Positions 6,041-57,207 of a stretch of 64,000 nt of DNA are shown here, in pieces. Position numbers and translations under genes: made by a program. Where the stretch lies: sequence record OQ703618.1; one strand, 5' to 3'. Under the pieces are notes generated by a model. It did not search any database. It worked only from the letters and a program-made list of their open reading frames with translations, and had not been told where the DNA came from. The first letter of the stretch is position 1. Every line of letters begins with the position of its first letter. Source of the DNA: Escherichia phage GADS24.

Positions 6041-6063
6041 CAAAAGGGAGACCGAAGTCTCCC
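6041..6063 (-). terminator. Intrinsic terminator, GGGAGAC-UUCG-GUCUCCC hairpin plus UUUUG
   Basis: 18-nt hairpin 6046-6063 with A-tract on plus strand (U-tract on minus transcript). Confidence 0.55.
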
Positions 6064-6068
6064 TAAAA

Positions 6069-14350: not shown

Positions 14351-14381
14351 ATTGTACCACAATCCTTGTGGTATGTAAAAC
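14351..14381 (-). promoter_or_regulatory. Early promoter variant (GTTTTAC, 18 nt, TACAAT)
   Basis: Motif upstream of rnlA. Confidence 0.4.
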
Positions 14382-14791
14382 TACTTTTTCTTATGTTGGA
14401 TATTCCAAGGCGGGTTGAACTTTTTGATAAAAAGCGGTTCTTCAAGGTCCATTGTTGCGATGGTCATTGAACCAAGTTCGTTGGTGACTGAAAGGTCAAA
14501 ACATTGGCGGGCCCAGAATTCAACCTTTTTGCCTTGCATTAAGGCATCCAAAATCATAAGAGATTTTCTTGAATCTGAAGTCTGGTCTTTTCGATTTATA
14601 GCTGTTCGATAATAGTTAATGCGTTTCTTTAAATTCTTGGTTTTACCAATATACACAAGTTCGTCATCTATAGCAATAGCGTATATGACATTTTTCTTAT
14701 TAGGGACATCAACTGTTTTAATTGTTGCATCTTCTAATAGCTCCAATTCTGTATATTTAATAAAGGAATATTCGGCGGCAATATCTTTCAT
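14381..14791 (-). CDS. denA: endonuclease II (GIY-YIG family)
   Basis: 136 aa matching T4 DenA (VIYAIAI.DELVYIGKTKNL.KRINYYRTAINRKD...NPPWNIQHKKK). Confidence 0.92.
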   Translation of the reverse strand: MKDIAAEYSFIKYTELELLEDATIKTVDVPNKKNVIYAIAIDDELVYIGKTKNLKKRINYYRTAINRKDQTSDSRKSLMILDALMQGKKVEFWARQCFDLSVTNELGSMTIATMDLEEPLFIKKFNPPWNIQHKKK

Positions 14792-14817: not shown

Positions 14818-15996
14818 TTAGAAATATTTTTTGTATGAATTGATTACATTTTGGTCTACATCATTATCAATTTGTGCGACAAGATAAGAACTGATTTCAA
14901 CTTCCTGAGGAGCTGCTTGAACTAAATCAGAGTTCAGATATTCACGAATCCAAGGATACGGATGCTTGGACGGAGCATCAGTGATTGGGCATGGCAAACC
15001 GCACTGTTTCATACGAGACACAGTCAAGTAATCAACAAAAGCACACATACTCTGCGTATTGATACCTGGACATGTACCATCTTTAAAGAGGTGTGCAGCC
15101 CATTCCTTCTCTTGACTATTTACTTCCATAAAAATGTCAACTGCTTCTTGTTCACATTCTTTAGCAATTTGAACCCACTCATCACCGTCGGTACCAGATT
15201 GAAGTTGACGGATAATGTACTGAGTACCCTTGAGATGGAGTTGTTCGTCACGAGCAATGAACTTCATAATCTTTGCATTACCTTCCATAATTTCCATATT
15301 TTTATGGAAGTTGAAAGTACATGCAAATGATACGTAAAAACGAATAGCTTCTAAGGCGTTGATAACATGCAAACAGAGATAAAGAGACTTCATTAGGTCA
15401 TGTTTACATTCTTCCATGTGCATAAGACTATTTGAATACGCATCTAAATCATATTCATTTTCGGAAAAACATTTAAAAATTTCTTTAGCATTTTCCCATT
15501 CACGGGTTTTAATCAGAACGTCATCATAATAACGTCCAATGGATTCAGCTCGTTTCATGATTGCTTCGTCTAATACAATCTCATCAAATACTTTGGATGG
15601 ATCGGTATAAAGATTTCGCATAATATGAGTGTACGAACGAGAGTGAATAGTTTCACTGAATGTCCATGTTGCAACCCACGTATCTAATGAAGGGTCAGAA
15701 ATCAGTGCCATAAGTACCGCAGATGGGGCCCTGCCTTGGATAGAATCCAATAATGATTGATACTTAAGATTGTTTGTAAAGATGTCCTGTTGGAACTGAG
15801 GAAGCTTATTGAACTGCGCAGAGTCCAACATCAAGTTTACCTCTTCTGGGCGCCAGAAAAACGACAATTGCTTTTCAATAAGTTCTTCAAAAACTTTATG
15901 TCGCTGAATATCATAACGTGCGAGGCCAAGACCAGAACCAAAGAACATCGGTTCATTCAAAACATCGACTTGTTGCGTGTTAAAAACTGTACTCAT
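14818..15996 (-). CDS. nrdB: ribonucleotide reductase beta subunit, uninterrupted
   Basis: 392-aa continuous ORF with class Ia R2 features; synteny; no intron. Confidence 0.93.
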   Translation of the reverse strand: MSTVFNTQQVDVLNEPMFFGSGLGLARYDIQRHKVFEELIEKQLSFFWRPEEVNLMLDSAQFNKLPQFQQDIFTNNLKYQSLLDSIQGRAPSAVLMALISDPSLDTWVATWTFSETIHSRSYTHIMRNLYTDPSKVFDEIVLDEAIMKRAESIGRYYDDVLIKTREWENAKEIFKCFSENEYDLDAYSNSLMHMEECKHDLMKSLYLCLHVINALEAIRFYVSFACTFNFHKNMEIMEGNAKIMKFIARDEQLHLKGTQYIIRQLQSGTDGDEWVQIAKECEQEAVDIFMEVNSQEKEWAAHLFKDGTCPGINTQSMCAFVDYLTVSRMKQCGLPCPITDAPSKHPYPWIREYLNSDLVQAAPQEVEISSYLVAQIDNDVDQNVINSYKKYF

Positions 15997-16051: not shown

Positions 16052-18307
16052 TTAAAGCTTACAAGCAGAACAATCTTCAGCTTTAGGTGTTTCTAATTCA
16101 TAGTCATCTGTACCTGACCCATCACGAGTGTTATGATAGTAGAGGTTTTTTCCGCCAAAGTACCAGAAGTAAAGCAGATCGTCAAGCATTACCGACATTG
16201 GCACTTTACCTTTCTCAAATACTGCAGGGTCATAGTAAGTATTAGCAGAAGCAGATTGGCACACCCATTTCAACATGATAGCAACTTGGGTCAAATAAGG
16301 TTTATTACCTTTCTTAGCAAGTTTCCACGCGTAGTCGTAAAGATTCATGTTATGTTCGATATTAGGAACAACCTGACGGAAGTTGCCTTCTTTAGATTCT
16401 TTAATACTCACTGGACCACGCGGCGGTTCAATCCCGTTTGTAGAGTTTGATACTTGACTGCTTGACTCACAAGGCATGAGTGCAGACAACGTTGAGTTAC
16501 GAATTCCATGTTCTTTGAGTTCAGCTCGAAGTTCTTCCCAATCACATACGTAGTTCGGGGCTGCGATTTGGTCAATCTTTTTATTGTACCAGTCGATAGG
16601 TAATTCGCCTCTAGACCATTTAGTGTCTGAATAATACTCGCAACATCCTTTTTCTTTGGCGAGTTTGATTGAAGCTTTGATAAGGCCATATTGCAATCTC
16701 TCAAACAATTCATGAGTCAAATCGTTAGCGTCTTCATATGAAGCGAAGTTAGAAGCTAACCATGCAGCATAGTTCGTAACACCAACACCAAGATTACGAC
16801 GCTTTTTGGCTTTTAAAGCTTCTGGAACCGGATAATCTTGATAGTCTAACAGATTATCAAGTGCACGTACTTGTACTTCAGCAAGTTCATTAATTTTATC
16901 TTGATCTTGCCAATCAAATTTATCTAATACAAAAGCAGATAATGTGCATAAACCAATTTCAGCATCAGGACCATTCACATCATTAGTTGGAATAGCGATT
17001 TCACAACATAAGTTACTCTGACGAATTGGAGCTTTTTCACGAATAAACGGAGTGTAGTTATTCGTGTTATCAACAAACTGTGGATAAATTCGAGCAGTAC
17101 CAGAACGTTCAGTCATGAACAATTCAAAGAGTTCTAGTGCTTTGATTCTTTTCTTTCTGATTGTTGGGTCTTTTTCAGCTTTCTCATAAAGCTCACGGAA
17201 TTTATTTTGATCTTCAAAGAACGAGTAGTATAGTTCGCCTGACATTTCGTGAGGGCTAAATAAAGTAATATAATCATTTTTACCAAGGCGTTCCATCATA
17301 AGGTCATTAATCTGAATTCCGTAGTCCATATGACGAATACGGTTTTCATCCACGCCTTTGTTATTTTTCAGAACTAATAGGTTCTCTACTTCTAAGTGCC
17401 ACATCGGATAATACGCTGTAGCAGCACCACCACGAATACCACCTTGAGAACAAGATTTTACTGCAGTTTGGAAATGTTTCCAGAATGGAATAACACCTGT
17501 ATGTCGAACTTCACCCATACCGATCTTAGAACCTTCTGCACGAAGCATACCAACGTTGATACCGATACCAGCTCGTTTAGAAATATATTCAATAATTGAT
17601 GCTGAAGTTTTGTTAATAGATTTTAACGAATCACCGGCTTCAATAACTACACAACTAGAGAACTGGCGAGTCGGAGTACGAGCACCTGCCATAATTGGGG
17701 TAGGCAACGAAACTTGATGAGTAGAAACGGCATCATAAAAACGAATAATATGTTTCAAACGGTCATGAGTTTCGTCTTGATGTAAGGCCATGCCGATAGC
17801 CATGATAGCAAACTGAGGAGTTTCATAAATCTTCCCAGTTGTTTTATCTTTAACTAGATATTTTTCTTTAAGCTGCATAGCACCAGCATAAGTCAGGTCA
17901 AAATCTCGCTCGTGTTTAATCCGAGAATCAAGATAAATGATTTCTTCCGCAGAATATCTAGACAACAACTCAGGATCGTATTTGCCTTCATTAACACAAT
18001 ACGAGATATGGTCGATAAAAGCAGGAGGTTCAAACTGCCCGTATACATCTTTACGAAGTGCAAACATTAGCCCTTTGGCGGCGACATACTGATAATCAGG
18101 TTCTTCGACAGAAATCGAGTTAGCTGCAACTTTAATACAAATCTTCTGAATATCTTTGGTGCTCATCCCGTCAACAAGATGGGTCTTAATTTCTTCGTAC
18201 AATTCGTATGGGTCAATTTGTGTTCCTTCACATTGCCAAGTTAAGACTTGAATAATTTTCTGTGCATCAAAATTTTGGGATACACCACTGCTCTTAGTTA
18301 CTTGCAT
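16052..18307 (-). CDS. nrdA: ribonucleotide reductase alpha subunit
   Basis: 751 aa, class Ia R1 homolog; synteny. Confidence 0.95.
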   Translation of the reverse strand: MQVTKSSGVSQNFDAQKIIQVLTWQCEGTQIDPYELYEEIKTHLVDGMSTKDIQKICIKVAANSISVEEPDYQYVAAKGLMFALRKDVYGQFEPPAFIDHISYCVNEGKYDPELLSRYSAEEIIYLDSRIKHERDFDLTYAGAMQLKEKYLVKDKTTGKIYETPQFAIMAIGMALHQDETHDRLKHIIRFYDAVSTHQVSLPTPIMAGARTPTRQFSSCVVIEAGDSLKSINKTSASIIEYISKRAGIGINVGMLRAEGSKIGMGEVRHTGVIPFWKHFQTAVKSCSQGGIRGGAATAYYPMWHLEVENLLVLKNNKGVDENRIRHMDYGIQINDLMMERLGKNDYITLFSPHEMSGELYYSFFEDQNKFRELYEKAEKDPTIRKKRIKALELFELFMTERSGTARIYPQFVDNTNNYTPFIREKAPIRQSNLCCEIAIPTNDVNGPDAEIGLCTLSAFVLDKFDWQDQDKINELAEVQVRALDNLLDYQDYPVPEALKAKKRRNLGVGVTNYAAWLASNFASYEDANDLTHELFERLQYGLIKASIKLAKEKGCCEYYSDTKWSRGELPIDWYNKKIDQIAAPNYVCDWEELRAELKEHGIRNSTLSALMPCESSSQVSNSTNGIEPPRGPVSIKESKEGNFRQVVPNIEHNMNLYDYAWKLAKKGNKPYLTQVAIMLKWVCQSASANTYYDPAVFEKGKVPMSVMLDDLLYFWYFGGKNLYYHNTRDGSGTDDYELETPKAEDCSACKL

Positions 18308-21121: not shown

Positions 21122-21144
21122 CAAAAGGGAGACCGAAGTCTCCC
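21122..21144 (-). terminator. Gene 32 terminator: GGGAGAC-UUCG-GUCUCCC hairpin plus U-tract
   Basis: Hairpin 21127-21144 with A4 on plus strand, directly after gp32 stop. Confidence 0.6.
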
Positions 21145-28319: not shown

Positions 28320-29447
28320 ATGGAAAAATTTATGGCTAAGTTTGGACAAGGATACGTCCAAACGCCATTTTTATCGGAAAGCAATTCAGTACGATTTAAA
28401 TTAAGCATAGCGGGATCTTGCCCGCTATCAACATCTCCTGCTTATATTAAGTTTCAAGATAATCCACTTGGGTCCCAGGTTTTTTCCGTTGGATTAAACG
28501 TTCGTGTAATAAATCCTACAACAGGTGCAGTAGTTGAATCTAAGTCATATAATTTCTCTACTGAAAACGACGCCACGTCAAGTGCATTTGTTACTTACAT
28601 GGACACATATGCTTCAAATTTTATATTTGCTCTTGTTACTAACGCTAAAACAAACTTTCCACCTGAAGTTCTCGCATGGTTTACTAAAGCTGGGAGTTCT
28701 GTTATTCCATTAGCTCAACAAGTTTTAAATATAGTGGACATTTCTTATTCAGCATTTTATATTTCTGGTAAGAATGCTATAGCACTAGAACATATTAAGT
28801 ATAGTAATAAGAAAACTTCAACCGACTATAGTACACCACTTGATGTTGTGTACGACACGATTGATGATATTGGTGCTACCGGCTTCCCTAGACGTACGTA
28901 TGAATCGTCAGACACATTTTTATCTGCTGTTGGAGGTACTAATAATGAAATTAAAAGGATGCCTACAACATCCATTATTACACCTCTCGCTGGGTATAAA
29001 TTGAAGCCTGGAGATTTCCTTTATATGAAATTCCAACTAATGGCCGATGCTGATTTGTTAGCACAAGGGACGACACGACTTTCTATTCGTTTCTTTAAAT
29101 CTCCTTCTACTTCACCTATTTCATTTAAGGATATAAACTTTGATGGGGGCGCAGGTGAATGGAAGATATATGAAGACTACATAGAAATTCCTGGTGGTGC
29201 TGATGGGTTCACGATTTATTGTTATCGTACGGCTCCAGTCGGGCAAGGTGGATTAAGAAACGTTATATTCACTGAAGTATCATGTAATGGAAGCGTTTCA
29301 AAACCTGCCGAGTTTGGTATAAATGGTATTCGTGTAAATTACGTTTCAGAATCTTTAAGTGCTCCAGACATAATGACATTACCTACTCAATCTTCAACCG
29401 ATACTGGTAAGGTATTTGGTCAAGAATTTAAAGAAGCATCAGAATAA
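28320..29447 (+). CDS. 35: long tail fibre hinge connector gp35
   Basis: 375 aa; synteny. Confidence 0.9.
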   Translation: MEKFMAKFGQGYVQTPFLSESNSVRFKLSIAGSCPLSTSPAYIKFQDNPLGSQVFSVGLNVRVINPTTGAVVESKSYNFSTENDATSSAFVTYMDTYASNFIFALVTNAKTNFPPEVLAWFTKAGSSVIPLAQQVLNIVDISYSAFYISGKNAIALEHIKYSNKKTSTDYSTPLDVVYDTIDDIGATGFPRRTYESSDTFLSAVGGTNNEIKRMPTTSIITPLAGYKLKPGDFLYMKFQLMADADLLAQGTTRLSIRFFKSPSTSPISFKDINFDGGAGEWKIYEDYIEIPGGADGFTIYCYRTAPVGQGGLRNVIFTEVSCNGSVSKPAEFGINGIRVNYVSESLSAPDIMTLPTQSSTDTGKVFGQEFKEASE

Positions 29448-29477: not shown

Positions 29478-29485
29478 TATAAATA
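29478..29485 (+). promoter_or_regulatory. Late promoter TATAAATA for gene 36
   Basis: Exact TATAAATA 25 nt upstream of gp36 ATG. Confidence 0.6.
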
Positions 29486-29509: not shown

Positions 29510-30172
29510 ATGGCCGATTTAAAAGCTGGTAGTACAACTGGCGGTGCTGTCATATGGCATCAAGGTAATTTCCCTTTAATGCCAGCAGGTGATGACGTCC
29601 TGTATAAAACGTTTAAACTCTATTCAGAATATAATAAACCACAAGCTGCTGATAACGATTTCGTTTCTAAAGCTAATGGTGGTACTTACGCTGCAACTGT
29701 TCGATTTAATGGAGGCGTACATGTTCCTACTGTAGGTAGTAGTCAACAATGCGGTGTTTATCCAGGTAACGGTGATGCAGCTACTTTTGCTATGGCAAAT
29801 ATTGACATCGTTTCGTGGAATGGTATTGGTTTTAAGTCATCACAAGGTTCAGCCGACCGAACTGTTGTAATTAATGCACGTAATGGTGATATTAGTACAA
29901 AAGGCGTTGTGTCAGCAGTAGGTCAAATAAGAAGTAATGCAGTTGCTCCAGTTGCAGCAAATGATCTCACAAGAAAAGATTATGTTGATGGACGAATAAA
30001 TATTGTTACGGATAACGCAAATTCTCGTGTATTGCGTAAAGGCGATACCATGACTGGTACTTTAACAGCACCAAACTTTTTCTCACAGAATCCGGCGTCT
30101 GAGGCTAATCATGTTCCTCGTTTCGACCAGATTGTAATTAAGGATTCTGTTCAAGATTTCGGCTATTATTAA
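29510..30172 (+). CDS. 36: long tail fibre distal connector gp36
   Basis: 220 aa; matches T4 gp36; synteny. Confidence 0.92.
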
Positions 30173-30180
30173 GAGGACTT

Positions 30181-33100
30181 ATGGCTACTTTAAAACAAAT
30201 ACAATTTAAAAGAAGCAAAATCGCAGGTGCCCGTCCTGCTGCTTCAGTATTAGCCGAAGGTGAATTGGCTATAAACTTAAAAGATAGAACAATTTTTACT
30301 AAAGACGATTCAGGAAATATCATCGATTTAAGCATTTCCGCTGGCGGTAATATCAGTGGAAATGTAACTATTGACGGAACTTTACGCGTCAATGGACCAA
30401 TAAACAATTTTGGAAATTTTTCCACAAGTGGCCAGATTACCGCTGGTAGTAGTATTTCAGCTCAAGTTTTTAGAGCATTGCAAGGTTCATTTTATACAAG
30501 AGCAACAAACGATACTGCAAATGCCCATCTTTGGTTTGAAAATACAAATGGATCGGAGAGAGGTGTTTTATATTCAAAACCACAGTCTGAAAATGAAGGC
30601 GTAATTACAATGCGTGTTCGCCAAGGAACCGCAGCAGGGGCTCAAAATTCAGAATTTCATTTCATTTCTACTGATGGTGGTATTTTCCAGGCACGCAAGT
30701 TAACTGCTTTAACTTCTATTAGTACACCAACTATTAGTGTTAATTTAATTAATCACGATTCTAAAGCCTTTGGACAATATGATTCTCAATCTTTGGTCAA
30801 CTATGTTTATCCTGGCACCGGTGAAACGAATGGTGTAAACTATCTTCGTAAAGTTCGTGCTAAATCCGGTGGCACTATGTGGCATGAGCTTTGTACTGCT
30901 CAGACAGGGCAAGCTGATGAAATGTCTTGGTGGACAGGTAATACCCCACAGTCAAAACAGTATGGTATTCGTAACGATGGTCGAATAGCTGGACGTAATA
31001 GCCTTGCATTAGGTACATTCACTACAGATTTCCCGTCTAGTGATTATGGTAACGTCGGTGTAATGGGCGATAAGTATCTTGTTCTCGGTGACACTGTAAC
31101 TGGCTTGTCATACAAAAAAACTGGTGTATTTGATCTAGTTGGTGGTGGATATTCTGTTGCTTCTATTACTCCTGACAGTTTCCGTAGTACTCGTAAAGGT
31201 ATATTTGGACGCTCAGAAGATCAAGGTACAACATGGATTATGCCTGGAACGAACGTTGCATTTTTATCAGTTCAAACCCAAGCTGATGAAAACACTGCTG
31301 GAGACGGTCAGACACATATTGGCTATAACTCAGGCGGAAAAATGAACCACTATTTCCGTGGTAAAGGCAAAACTAATATTAATACTCAAGAAGGCGTGGA
31401 AGTTAACCCGGGTATTTTGAAATTGGTAACTGGCTCGAATAATGTAATGTTTTATGCTGATGGCGGTATTACATCTGTTAAGCAGCTTTCAATATATAAC
31501 GGAATATATTTAGCAGCTAATAATTCTACTGCTGGGCTAACATTCGCTCCAACTACTACAGTTGATGGCACTAAGCAAATTTTGTGGGAAGGTGGTACTC
31601 GTGCTGGGCAGAATAAAAGCTATGTAACTGTTAAAGCGTGGGGTAATTCATTTAATGCATCTGGTGATCGTAATCGTGAAACAGTTTTTGAAGTAGCTGA
31701 CGGACAAGGTTATTATTTTTATTCCCAACGCGTAGCCCCAAGCGGCTCCGAAACTACTGGTCCTGTTGTAACCCAGTTTGCTGGAGCTGTTAATGCTAGA
31801 GGAAGTATTATTACTGACGGAAGTTTTAAAGTTAATGGATTAAGCACTTTAGTCGGTAATGTTACCATGTCTAATGGTTTGTTTGTTCAAGGTGGTTCTT
31901 CTATTACTGGACAAGTTAAAATTGGTGGAACAGCTGATGCATTAAGAATTTGGAATGCTGAATACGGGGCTATTTTCCGTCGTTCTGAAGATAAGCTTTA
32001 TATTATTCCAACTCCACAGAATGCTGGTGAATCAGGTGGTATTTCTAATTTACGTCCGTTCTATATTGCATTAAGTGATGGTAAAGTCAGCATGGGTCAT
32101 GATGTTGATATCGGCGGCGGTAGATTTAAAGTAGAAGCGGCTGGGACTACGGTTGGTCAACGCATAACAGTAAATATGGCATCAGATGCTATTAGAATAA
32201 ATGCCCCAACACAAGAATCTTCTAACTTCATCCAAGGACGTAAAGCAGATGTTCCAAAATGGTATTTAGGTATTGGCGATGGCGGCAACGTCGTTCGTAT
32301 GCACAGTTACACCTACTCCCATGGTATTGCATTAAACTCTGATACGGTTGATATAGCTAAACCTCTTAGAATAGGTTCAACCCAGATTGGTACTGATGGT
32401 AATATTACTGGTGGTTCTGGTAATTTTGCTAACTTGAATACCACAATAAATAACCTTAAGACGGATATTGTGTCGAGTTATCCAATTGGTGCTCCGATTC
32501 CTTGGCCAACGGATACTCCTCCTGAAGGTTATGCCATAATGGAAGGTCAAACATTTGATGTTGACTTGTATCCTAAATTAGCTGCGGTGTATCCTTCCGG
32601 CGCACTGCCTGATATGCGTGGTCAAACTATCAAGGGTAAACCATCTGGGCGTGATGTATTGAGTACAGAAGCAGACGGTGTTAAGTCACATAGCCATAGT
32701 GCAAGTGCATCAAGCACAGATTTGGGTACTAAAAATACGTCAAGTTTTGATTATGGTAATAAAACGACTTCAAGCTTTGATTATGGTACTAAGACCAGCA
32801 ATACCACAGGTAACCATGCTCATACGGTAAGTGGTACTACGAGTGCAGCTGGTAACCACCAGCACTCACAGACAGGCCCAAGAGGACCTAGTAACCAACC
32901 GACCGGGATATTTCCTAATGGGGCTACTCTAATTAGTGGGTCTCAGGTTGTTGGTTTTGGCCTAAGCAACGGTGTCGTGCCTGGTACAAGCCAATATATT
33001 GCAAAGTCGTCAACAGAAGGTAACCATACTCATAGTTGGTCTGGTACTACAAGCACTACAGGTAACCATGCTCATACGGTAGGTATTGGTGCTCATTCTC

Positions 33101-33237
33101 ATACTGTGGGTATTGGCGCTCATTCTCATACTGTTGCAATTGGTTCCCATGGACATACAATAACTGTAAATGCCACAGGAAATACAGAAAACACAGTTAA
33201 AAACGTTGCTTTTAACTATATCGTTCGTTTAGCATAA
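30181..33237 (+). CDS. 37: long tail fibre distal subunit gp37 (receptor-recognising), with C-terminal His-box array
   Basis: 1018 aa; N-terminal and central regions match T4 gp37 ([49 protein letters not shown]...); C-terminus [31 protein letters not shown] as in T4. Confidence 0.95.
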
Positions 33238-33267
33238 GGAGAAGGGACTTCTGTCCCTTTTTATAAT
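33236..33267 (+). promoter_or_regulatory. Gene 38 split ribosome-binding site: SD AAGGAG, GGGAC-UUCU-GUCCC hairpin, U-tract, AUG
   Basis: SD at 33236-33241 is 26 nt from AUG 33268 but hairpin 33245-33258 would bring them together; also acts as terminator-like element after gene 37. Confidence 0.5.
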
Positions 33268-33819
33268 ATGAAACTCTATCACTATTATTTTGACACTAAA
33301 GAATTTTACAAAGAAGAAAATTATAAACCATTAAAAGGCGTAGGATTTCCGGCTCATTCAACACCAAAAAAACCTTTAGACCCTAAAGAAGGCTATGCTG
33401 TTATATTTGACGAACGCGAGCAAGAATGGGTATATGTTGAAGACCATCGTGGAAAAACAGTATGGACTTATGATAAGCAAAAAATTGTTATTGACACCCC
33501 AGGTGCTCTTCAAAATGTTACTACAGAAGAACCTGGTGAATTTGACATTTGGACTGGCGACGGGTGGAAGGAAGATGAAGCATATAAACGCGTAGTTCAA
33601 CGTGATAAGAAAATTCATGAACTCTATAAATTATTCAGTGTTTTAAGTTCTCTTATTGACGCAGAGGTTGCTAATAGAGAAGAAAAACGAAAATTTAAAG
33701 AGCTCAAAAAATTCTTTGCCCTTTTAGAAAAACACGAACATCTTGGCGGTGAATTCCCTAAATTCCCTGACCTTGAAAACAAATCTATTGTCAAAGCGAT
33801 TATAAATATCTTTAAGTAA
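33268..33819 (+). CDS. 38: gp38 tail fibre assembly chaperone (T4-type)
   Basis: 183 aa matching T4 gp38 (M.IYHYYFDTKEFYKEENYKP...FALLEKHEHLGGEFP). Confidence 0.9.
   Translation: MKLYHYYFDTKEFYKEENYKPLKGVGFPAHSTPKKPLDPKEGYAVIFDEREQEWVYVEDHRGKTVWTYDKQKIVIDTPGALQNVTTEEPGEFDIWTGDGWKEDEAYKRVVQRDKKIHELYKLFSVLSSLIDAEVANREEKRKFKELKKFFALLEKHEHLGGEFPKFPDLENKSIVKAIINIFK
33801..33808 (+). promoter_or_regulatory. Late promoter TATAAATA for holin t
   Basis: Exact TATAAATA inside 3' end of gene 38, 21 nt upstream of t ATG. Confidence 0.55.
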
Positions 33820-33828
33820 GGAGGTATT

Positions 33829-34488
33829 ATGGCAACACCAAAAGTATCATTTTCACTTAGTGATATTCTATTTGGGTTGCTAGATCGTATTTTCAAAGAT
33901 AACGCTACTGGAAAGGTTTTAATGTCCCGAGTAGCGGTAATTATTCTTTTGTTCCTAATGGCACTAATATGGTACAAAGGAAGTATTTTGCTGGATTATT
34001 ACGTAAGAGCTAAGTATGATACTTATACTGAAATAATCCAAAAAGAACGAGCTTTACGTTTTGAATCTGCGGCTCTAGAACAACTGCAAATAGTTCATAT
34101 CTCATCTGGTGCAGATTTTAGTGCTGTGTATTCTTTCAGACCTAAAAACTTAAATTATTTTGTCGACCTTATAGCTTATGAAGGCAAACTACCTAGCACA
34201 ATTTCTGAAAAGTCCCTTGGTGGATTCCCGGTGGATAAAACGGCCGATGAATATATAATTCATTTAAGCGGCCGTCATTTCTCATCTAAATCAGAATTTG
34301 CATTTTTGCCTACAAAATCTAAGACTGCCGAACTTTCTTATATGTATAGTTGTCCATACTTTAATTTGGATAACATCTATGCTGGAACTGTGACGATGTA
34401 TTGGTATAAGGGGAATAATATACTTGAGGAGGACCGCTTAGCGGCTATATGCAACCAAGCGGTCCGAATACTAGGAAGGGCTAAATAA
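33829..34488 (+). CDS. t: holin T
   Basis: 219 aa matching T4 holin (..SFS.SDILFG.LDR.FKDNATGKVL.SRVAV...CPYFNLDNIYAGT.TMYWY). Confidence 0.93.
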   Translation: MATPKVSFSLSDILFGLLDRIFKDNATGKVLMSRVAVIILLFLMALIWYKGSILLDYYVRAKYDTYTEIIQKERALRFESAALEQLQIVHISSGADFSAVYSFRPKNLNYFVDLIAYEGKLPSTISEKSLGGFPVDKTADEYIIHLSGRHFSSKSEFAFLPTKSKTAELSYMYSCPYFNLDNIYAGTVTMYWYKGNNILEEDRLAAICNQAVRILGRAK

Positions 34489-41212: not shown

Positions 41213-41233
41213 AAAAAGGGGACCGAAGTCCCC
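41213..41233 (-). terminator. Intrinsic terminator GGGGAC-UUCG-GUCCCC plus U5 (after rIIB)
   Basis: Hairpin 41218-41233 with A5 on plus strand. Confidence 0.55.
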
Positions 41234-51167: not shown

Positions 51168-51845
51168 TTATCGCTGTTTTACACTTAACGGGTCAGGATT
51201 CTCAGGGACATCTTCAAGGCCAAGCGCATAACGCTGAGCATATTTTAACATCAAAATATCTTTAGCACAATCATGAATACTATCATGGGCAACGAATCCT
51301 TTTAGCGTACCCATCGGTAATGGACACATACTTAATCCTCGTGTCAACGAGTAAGCTTCGATTGCCGTACGAATATCGCGTTGAGCCCAGAATTTAACCG
51401 GTTCTAATTTATCGGTATCAATCTCTGGTTCAAGAACACCTTCATCACGATAGAGGTCACGAATCAAATCGACCAATATCGGGAAGTCAAAGCTCATACC
51501 ACGGCACCACATCTGTGATTTCCATTGGTCAACTTTATTAGCTCGGCAATAATCTAAAAAGATTTTAATGCCTTCAAGCGTAGTGACATCGTCTTCAGAC
51601 GGAGCTAGGTTTTTACGTGCTTCTGCTGATTGTTCTTTCCACCATTTCATAGTGGATTTAGCGAAAACTCGCTTCCCTTTCTGAGAAGCTAAATTAAATT
51701 TAATTCGCTTACCTCGTTGAACAAGTTCTTCAAATGATTCAACAACTTCAGGGTCGGAATTATATGCAATAACCGCAAGGTCAATAACAGCCGCTTTTGA
51801 TGTATTGCCGAATGTTTCAAAATCTATAATAACATCAGTGCTCAT
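51168..51845 (-). CDS. dexA: exonuclease A (DnaQ-like 3'-5' exonuclease)
   Basis: 225 aa matching T4 DexA (IIDFET.G...AAVIDLAVIA...CRGMSFDFPILVDLIRD...GFVAHDSIHDCAKDILM.KYA.RYA.GLED). Confidence 0.93.
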   Translation of the reverse strand: MSTDVIIDFETFGNTSKAAVIDLAVIAYNSDPEVVESFEELVQRGKRIKFNLASQKGKRVFAKSTMKWWKEQSAEARKNLAPSEDDVTTLEGIKIFLDYCRANKVDQWKSQMWCRGMSFDFPILVDLIRDLYRDEGVLEPEIDTDKLEPVKFWAQRDIRTAIEAYSLTRGLSMCPLPMGTLKGFVAHDSIHDCAKDILMLKYAQRYALGLEDVPENPDPLSVKQR

Positions 51846-57171: not shown

Positions 57172-57198
57172 AAAAAAAAAGGAATCCCGAAGGATTCC
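57172..57198 (-). terminator. Intrinsic terminator GGAAUCC-UUCG-GGAUUCC plus U9 (after soc)
   Basis: Hairpin 57181-57198 with A9 on plus strand. Confidence 0.65.
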
Positions 57199-57207
57199 TT
57201 AAATTAT

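Follow-up and report, generated by a model that had tools for sequence, protein, structure and literature searches.

How is gene 38 of Escherichia phage GADS24 translated when the only good Shine-Dalgarno (SD) sequence ahead of its start codon lies far upstream, on the other side of a GC-rich hairpin? We addressed this question in a window of 64,000 nt (from record OQ703618.1), the whole stretch of DNA that was analysed, which belongs to a T4-like (Mosigvirus-like) myovirus. The closest genomes are those of Mosigvirus phages, including SSE1, which is 97% identical over 701 nt. The features that bear on the question are these:

29478-29485, + strand: late-promoter motif TATAAATA upstream of gene 36, the nearest one upstream of gene 38
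30181-33237, + strand: gene 37, long tail fiber distal subunit, 1018 aa (ORF list; orthologous CDS in T4T, SA79RD and G2469)
33235-33237, + strand: gene 37 UAA stop (sequence)
33236-33241, + strand: SD AAGGAG, sharing bases with the gene 37 stop as UAAGGAG (sequence; best anti-SD duplex)
33239-33262, + strand: extended MFE helix of 10 bp, with lower A-U/G-U pairs joining 33239-33243 to 33258-33262 (folding)
33244-33257, + strand: core hairpin GGGAC-UUCU-GUCCC of 5 bp with a 4-nt loop, made up of GGGAC (33244-33248), loop UUCU (33249-33252) and GUCCC (33253-33257) (sequence and folding)
33258-33267, + strand: U5 run (33258-33262) and AU-rich spacer, UUUUUAUAAU (sequence)
33268-33270, + strand: gene 38 AUG (sequence)
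33268-33819, + strand: gene 38, T4-type (Tfa-like) distal tail-fiber assembly chaperone, 183 aa (ORF list, tblastn)
33801-33808, + strand: late-promoter motif TATAAATA within the 3' end of gene 38, ahead of t; annotated as a late promoter in SA79RD
33829-34488, + strand: holin t (ORF list)

Gene 38 has the same neighbours, 37 and t, as in T4. In tblastn comparisons its product is 100% identical to that of phage TU01, and it aligns with T4 gp38 from residue 1, with 66.5% identity over residues 1-179. The whole 37/38 junction reads GCA-UAAGGAGAAGGGACUUCUGUCCCUUUUUAUAAU-AUG, with a gap of exactly 26 nt (33242-33267) between SD and AUG. The earlier note had placed the SD, the AUG and a 26-nt gap between them, and all three proved exact on direct reading of the sequence; the hairpin sequence it gave was also right, but its coordinates of 33245-33258 are one base off and become 33244-33257. 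Neither the sequence nor an anti-SD scan revealed an SD-like motif in the UUUUUAUAAU spacer, and the U-run within it serves both as a terminator-like tail and as the 3' arm of the lower stem.

Genes 37 and 38 are late genes, and RegB cleavage at GGAG was considered. Near the region, + strand TATAAATA motifs occur only at 29478 and 33801, and the motif scan assigns no separate late promoter to gene 38. A candidate late promoter within UUUAUAAUAUG was dropped because it has no TATAAATA match. With the nearest upstream motif at 29478, a 36-37-38 co-transcript is implied. An Rfam scan of 32800-33700 found no family at gathering score, its snoRNA, miRNA and sRNA matches being at chance level (E > 1).

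The split ribosome-binding site (RBS) of T4 gene 38 is a case that reportedly stems from 1980s work of the Gold laboratory. According to the review PMC3014915, T4 genes 38 and 25 have a suboptimal SD-AUG spacing that is made functional by intervening secondary structure. At gene 38 the structure between SD and AUG cuts the spacing from 22 to 5 nt, and mutations that destabilise the structure lower initiation, a statement made for genes 38 and 25 jointly with reference to Nivinskas et al. (1999, J Mol Biol 288:291). We consider it likely that 33235-33270 corresponds, as an orthologue, to the region where translation of T4 gene 38 is initiated, and that it is a split RBS at which the 30S subunit opens the foot of the helix and a 7-bp hairpin is looped out. 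The split-RBS site as such is already published for T4, and that of GADS24 is a close relative's copy.

The resemblance to T4 extends over the entire junction. A 96-nt stretch is 88% identical to T4, where the 37/38 junction reads UAAGGAGAGGGGCUUCGGCCCCUUCUAAAUAUG, and the junction is present in 208 phage records. It likewise lies between gene 37 and a gene 38 of the T4 type, carries an identical UAAGGAG over the gene 37 stop, and continues with a 5-bp GC-rich core stem, a 4-nt loop, a U/A-rich spacer and the AUG. At stem pair 4, GADS24 has A-U where T4 has G-C, and its loop is UUCU where T4 has UUCG, a loop reported to be unusually stable; with A-U for G-C and without the UUCG loop, the GADS24 hairpin is weaker than that of T4. 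GADS24 also has one more A-U pair at the foot of the stem, a tail of UUUUUAUAAU rather than UUCUAAAU, and a linear gap of 26 nt compared with 23 nt in T4 by our count (22 in PMC3014915). Its tail is more terminator-like than T4's, and its SD is more paired in prediction. The initiation region of T4 gene 25, at the 26-25 junction, resembles these sites in that a stem-loop cuts the SD-AUG distance from 27 to 11 nt and is kept in close T-even phages (Nivinskas 1999; Malys & Nivinskas 2009; both as summarised in PMC3014915). It differs in belonging to another gene with unrelated sequence, and the 26-25 junction lies outside the window.

Folding predictions agree with such an arrangement. The hairpin was the dominant predicted structure in all four of the sequence contexts folded, with SD-AUG stem-loop folds of -12 to -16 kcal/mol overall (z ~ -3.3) and -7.7 kcal/mol for the core hairpin by itself. 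A 35-nt segment gave -14.5 kcal/mol (z = -3.5) and a 51-nt segment -15.9 kcal/mol (z = -3.3), and in each case 1 of 200 shuffles was equally stable. The MFE stem, at 10 bp (G33239-U33262 to C33248-G33253), is longer than the 5 bp given in the earlier note. At its foot the SD bases GAG (33239-33241) are paired with the U-run (P unpaired <= 0.06 in the partition function), and free RNA is thus predicted to sequester half of the SD; in the predicted fold of T4 the SD is less occluded, with P unpaired of 0.2-0.65. An outer helix, CAUA/UAUG, that pairs the gene 38 AUG with the last gene 37 codon was also seen in the MFE structure, and we did not count it as a feature because it consists of only 4 AU-rich bp and is not kept in phage TH58.

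The cost of gaining access to the SD is modest next to what its pairing returns. Holding the whole SD single-stranded costs about 4.3 kcal/mol in a constrained fold, compared with about -9.3 kcal/mol for the UAAGGAG:anti-SD duplex, so 30S binding should win. UAAGGAG is the sole strong site upstream of the gene 38 AUG, and an anti-SD hybridisation scan found nothing at or below -3 kcal/mol in the -15..-1 region. When the SD is constrained open, a 7-bp hairpin (33242-33259) persists in the computed structure and 8 nt (33260-33267) are left before the AUG. The earlier note had claimed that no closer functional SD exists and that the folded hairpin would put SD and AUG at a workable distance, and it had let its proposal stand or fall with the structure and with the lack of a closer site. 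The hairpin forms in every context folded (z -3.3 to -3.5), the anti-SD scan finds UAAGGAG only, and the 8 nt computed with the SD held free lie in the range of about 5-11 nt taken as functional.

On the split-RBS model, genes 36, 37 and 38 would be read from one late transcript. The 30S subunit would pair with the SD and displace the weak A-U/G-U pairing of the lower stem; the stable 7-bp hairpin (33242-33259) would remain folded and be looped out of the mRNA path; and the roughly 8 unpaired nt then lying between SD and AUG would provide a workable spacing. We infer that 30S binding opens the lower stem and that translation of gene 38 depends on the hairpin in GADS24.

Comparison among relatives is consistent with this model. 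About 30 loci were fetched and yielded 13 distinct T4-type junctions, in all 13 of which the SD UAAGGAG is invariant. Pairs were counted on an ungapped 18-nt alignment; a MAFFT alignment of the full junctions was not used for this purpose because it placed a gap inside the stem. Over nine distinct hairpins, standard pairs fill 63 of 63 cells, compared with 30-78% once the partner strand is shifted out of register. Stem pair 4 (A33247-U33254) is A-U in GADS24, G-C in T4, G-U in ESh33 and phage 55, and C-G in ESCO47 (GC:4, AU:3, CG:1, GU:1 over the nine hairpins), and the extra 5' A of the window-type stem is matched by an extra 3' U. The observed covariation score was reached by 5 of 500 shuffles. 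Only one stem position covaries, which makes this modest evidence, and the pattern is consistent with a selected stem. The parts around the stem vary more freely: loops among the relatives are UUCG, UUCU, UUAU, UUAG and GUUA, and the tail is U4, U5 or U6, with UUCUAAAU in its place in T4. Searching IMG/VR with the gp38 protein returned 2 loci, and a 16-nt DNA pattern returned 10, of which 2 were real junctions, both on contigs that had already been found. As IMG/VR gave no new junction diversity, variants were taken record by record from GenBank phages.

Some of these records combine features of both junction types. Phage slur08 has a T4-type 5' side and stem joined to a window-type U5 tail and gene 38 5' end, Mosigvirus moha and AV117 carry a T4-type junction, and the Tequatrovirus ESh33 carries a window-type one. 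These mosaics suggest recombination breakpoints in or beside the hairpin. In Salmonella phage Lv5cm (MZ150757, locus L019, 490-610), the hairpin and the first 18 codons of gene 38 are duplicated in tandem, over 77 nt; copy 1 follows the SD and ends at TAG, and the annotated copy 2 has the hairpin without AAGGAG. The duplication could be a slippage product or an assembly artefact. The early T4 record J02509 (locus L033, 130-160) reads GGGGCUUCGGCCC, with one C fewer than the modern sequence, probably a sequencing error in the GC hairpin.

A different picture emerges where gene 38 is of the T2 (adhesin) type. In RB69, PP01, Shf125875 and Klebsiella phage KMI9, the same hairpin directly follows the gene 37 stop, and a canonical SD comes after it. 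These junctions share the post-gene-37 hairpin with GADS24, but their gene 38 is non-homologous to the T4-type gene and their RBS is unsplit, with a strong SD (GGAGGU or AGGAG) 3' of the hairpin and 4-8 nt before the AUG. RB69 (locus L034, 6356-6390) and PP01 read UAAUAAGAGGGGCUUCGGCCCCUU-GGAGGU-N4-AUG, and the Slopekvirus KMI9 reads AGGGGCUUCGGCCCCUUUU-AGGAG-N8-AUG. In Shf125875 the hairpin is GGGCC-UUCG-GGCCC, where pair 4 has flipped from G-C to C-G as in ESCO47. In the anti-SD scan, the RB69 SD in the -15..-1 region reaches -13.2 kcal/mol. Because T2-type junctions keep the hairpin with an unsplit SD, its conservation cannot be credited to bridging alone. The split-RBS interpretation of the earlier note is supported by T4 orthology, the lack of a closer SD and covariation, with the correction that the T2-type junctions show the hairpin to be more than a bridge. 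The hairpin is probably a conserved element that punctuates the 3' end of gene 37 and is older than the split arrangement; it probably has a role at the mRNA level too, as a protector of 3' ends or a weak attenuator, and the T4-type junction would use the SD on its upstream side.

Taken further, this comparison could mean that the hairpin is primarily an element of the gene 37 mRNA, such as a 3'-exonuclease barrier or a stabiliser of a processing end, and that bridging is a secondary accommodation, which we regard as quite possible while leaning somewhat against it. A hairpin of the form AGGGGC-UUCG-GCCCCU or GGGCC-UUCG-GGCCC after the gene 37 stop of T2-type phages, even in a Slopekvirus, with a canonical SD after it, speaks for such a role, as do 13 further GC-rich UUCG hairpins in the window, most of them preceded by TAA and followed by an SD and an AUG. 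However, gene 38 has no SD within 26 nt and its translation would need bridging or coupling here too; a purely mRNA-level role leaves that translation unexplained and so complements the split-RBS model without excluding it. Coupling could take the form of termination-reinitiation, in which ribosomes sited at the stop melt the hairpin and 30S or 70S particles are passed to the AUG 30 nt downstream, with de novo entry making a minor contribution. At gene 37/38 junctions the overlap of stop and SD, UAAGGAG, does not vary, the corresponding UAAGG is nearly invariant at the nrdB/denA junctions described below, and the 5' arm of the stem begins 7 nt past the stop, where a ribosome at the stop codon is expected to unwind it. 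Yet the same overlap is expected at any compact phage junction, and by sequence alone reinitiation is both compatible with the split-RBS model and indistinguishable from it. The T4 effect is described as one on initiation in PMC3014915. Reinitiation as the main route seems somewhat unlikely to us.

The predicted pairing of the SD invites the opposite reading, that the hairpin is a negative element and that pairing of the SD bases GAG with the U-run restrains production of the gp38 chaperone in comparison with the structural protein gp37. G33239-G33241 lie in the helix by both MFE and partition function (P unpaired <= 0.06), and adhesin-type gp38 genes, whose product is a structural fibre part and hence needed stoichiometrically, have a much stronger, unsplit SD. 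But the sequestering A-U/G-U pairs are weak, with 4.3 kcal/mol to open against -9.3 kcal/mol from SD pairing; the SD of T4 is predicted to be less occluded; and destabilising the structure lowers initiation and does not raise it, according to PMC3014915. We therefore think a primarily negative role quite improbable.

The earlier note had also joined two functions in one structure, with the hairpin and U5 forming a leaky intrinsic terminator after gene 37 and the same hairpin activating translation of the transcripts that read through. The GC-rich hairpin and U-tract on which this rested are present: the core stem (-7.7 kcal/mol) followed by UUUUUAUAAU scores +11.9 on a rough d'Aubenton-Carafa-type scale calculated from ViennaRNA energies, and the GenBank records of G2469 and WFbE185 carry a software-made putative terminator annotation here. 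Without a late promoter of its own, gene 38 is transcribed through the hairpin, so any termination must be leaky, and a catalytically needed chaperone could tolerate attenuation. Nevertheless, with 5 bp the core stem is short to terminate transcription efficiently, and a terminator scan of the window did not list the site, apparently because no tail is left once the extended stem has taken up the U-run. Orthologous junctions do not conserve the U-tract: UUCUAAAU in T4 scores -9.3, RB69 and PP01 have UUGGAGG, and junction variants score anywhere between -9 and +25. In RB69-type junctions the stem is followed by no more than UU, and the U-run is clade-specific and absent in T4. Literature searches on T4 terminator maps turned up no transcript-end evidence. 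Set beside rho-independent terminators and the C(UUCG)G hairpins of T4, the GADS24 structure has the short GC-rich stem, a UUCG-like tetraloop, the C-G closing pair and, here, a U-run; it differs in its UUCU loop, its 5-bp core and a U-run that is unconserved, and any terminator is putative. From these sequence features, terminator coupling is plausible for the GADS24 clade and unsupported as a conserved function, and the coupled model as a whole appears unlikely.

We scanned the window for an upstream SD, a GC hairpin, no normal SD and an ATG opening an ORF, and obtained 22 candidates, among which gene 38 ranks first and denA is the only other accepted gene start. High-ranking candidates at 51650, which is not an ORF start and lies inside a 225-aa ORF (51168-51845), and at 17404, which is not a listed ORF start, were dropped. 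The denA locus has the following parts:

14818-15996, - strand: nrdB, overlapping the upstream end of the denA module
14822-14789, - strand: denA module of stop-SD, hairpin, U-rich spacer and AUG (window scan)
14381-14791, - strand: denA (endonuclease II), downstream of nrdB

The module reads UCUAAGGAC-GGGAC-UUCG-GUCCC-ACUUUAUU-AUG, with UAAGGAC as its stop-SD part, and its T4 counterpart (T4T, locus L038, 95-160) is UAAGGAG-U-GGGCC-GCAA-GGCCC-A-UUUUAUU-AUG. We compared about 20 distinct denA junctions drawn from 29 IMG/VR loci (L041-L069), plus one Klebsiella and one Citrobacter phage. In almost all, UAAGG(A/U)N or UAAAGGA overlaps the stop (UAAGAGAGG in L063 and L065), and a GC stem of 5-7 bp and varied sequence, a U/A-rich spacer of 7-10 nt and the AUG come after it; L062 is without the design. 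Stem covariation is extensive across these roughly 20 lineages, and in the junctions that keep the design no SD was found downstream of the hairpin. A targeted literature search returned no description of a split design at denA, and the review PMC3014915 names only genes 38 and 25. Judged from the junction sequences, denA may be an undescribed third member of the split-RBS class.

In the light of the T2-type and denA comparisons together, what was an old textbook curiosity comes to resemble a regulatory module that can be reused. Their modest addition to the T4 literature would be twofold: the hairpin that is bridged is a generic element of punctuation, older than the bridging, and denA is a further site of the split design. 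We tentatively propose, with more doubt than confidence, a modular design in T4-like phages in which a post-stop hairpin is combined either with a downstream SD or with an upstream SD that is bridged, the split form setting a low output, and in which the hairpin here is also a leaky terminator. If that were true, junctions with a downstream SD, such as that of adhesin-type gene 38, would be the usual form, with high output; the split form would occur at at least two junctions beyond the published 25 and 38, nrdB/denA being one; and low output would suit catalytic or toxic proteins such as the gp38 chaperone and endonuclease II.

The 13 further GC-rich UUCG-loop hairpins in the window, counted besides the gene 38 site, mostly lie within about 12 nt past a TAA triplet and are followed by a U-run or by an SD and AUG in ordinary order. 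Examples, all on the - strand, are at 57179-57200, 41218-41233, 21127-21144, 6045-6064 and 785-802. Near-identical stems recur, with GGGAGAC/GUCUCCC in 4 of the 13. In the segment 29453-29485 (+ strand), between gene 35 (28320-29447) and gene 36 (which begins at 29510), a 7-bp hairpin, GGGAGAC-UUCG-GUCUCCC, is followed by AUUUUUG. This terminator-like hairpin is directly ahead of the TATAAATA motif at 29478-29485, the expected promoter of genes 36-38.

The split arrangement has practical consequences for both engineering and annotation. When gene 37/38 host-range cassettes are swapped, UAAGGAG, the hairpin and the spacer should be retained together, as expression of the chaperone may otherwise fail. 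Gene finders mis-handle split sites because they seek an SD 5-10 nt upstream of the start. In the record of Escherichia phage 55 (locus L032, 148-150), a 'GGT' within the hairpin is marked as the gene 38 RBS. In T4T (locus L038, 116), the denA start is set at a GUG inside the hairpin, giving a protein of 144 aa, where the conserved AUG would give 136 aa. E. coli O157 typing phage 3 (NC_041863, locus L025, 131-167) has a loop, UUAU, that creates an AUG within the hairpin (GGGAC-UU-AUG-UCCC), and an extra T (U6) sets this AUG in frame with gene 38; RefSeq starts gp38 at it, which makes the gene 570 nt long instead of 552. The loop AUG stands 9 nt past the SD, so that a gp38 longer by 6 residues is conceivable in that phage.
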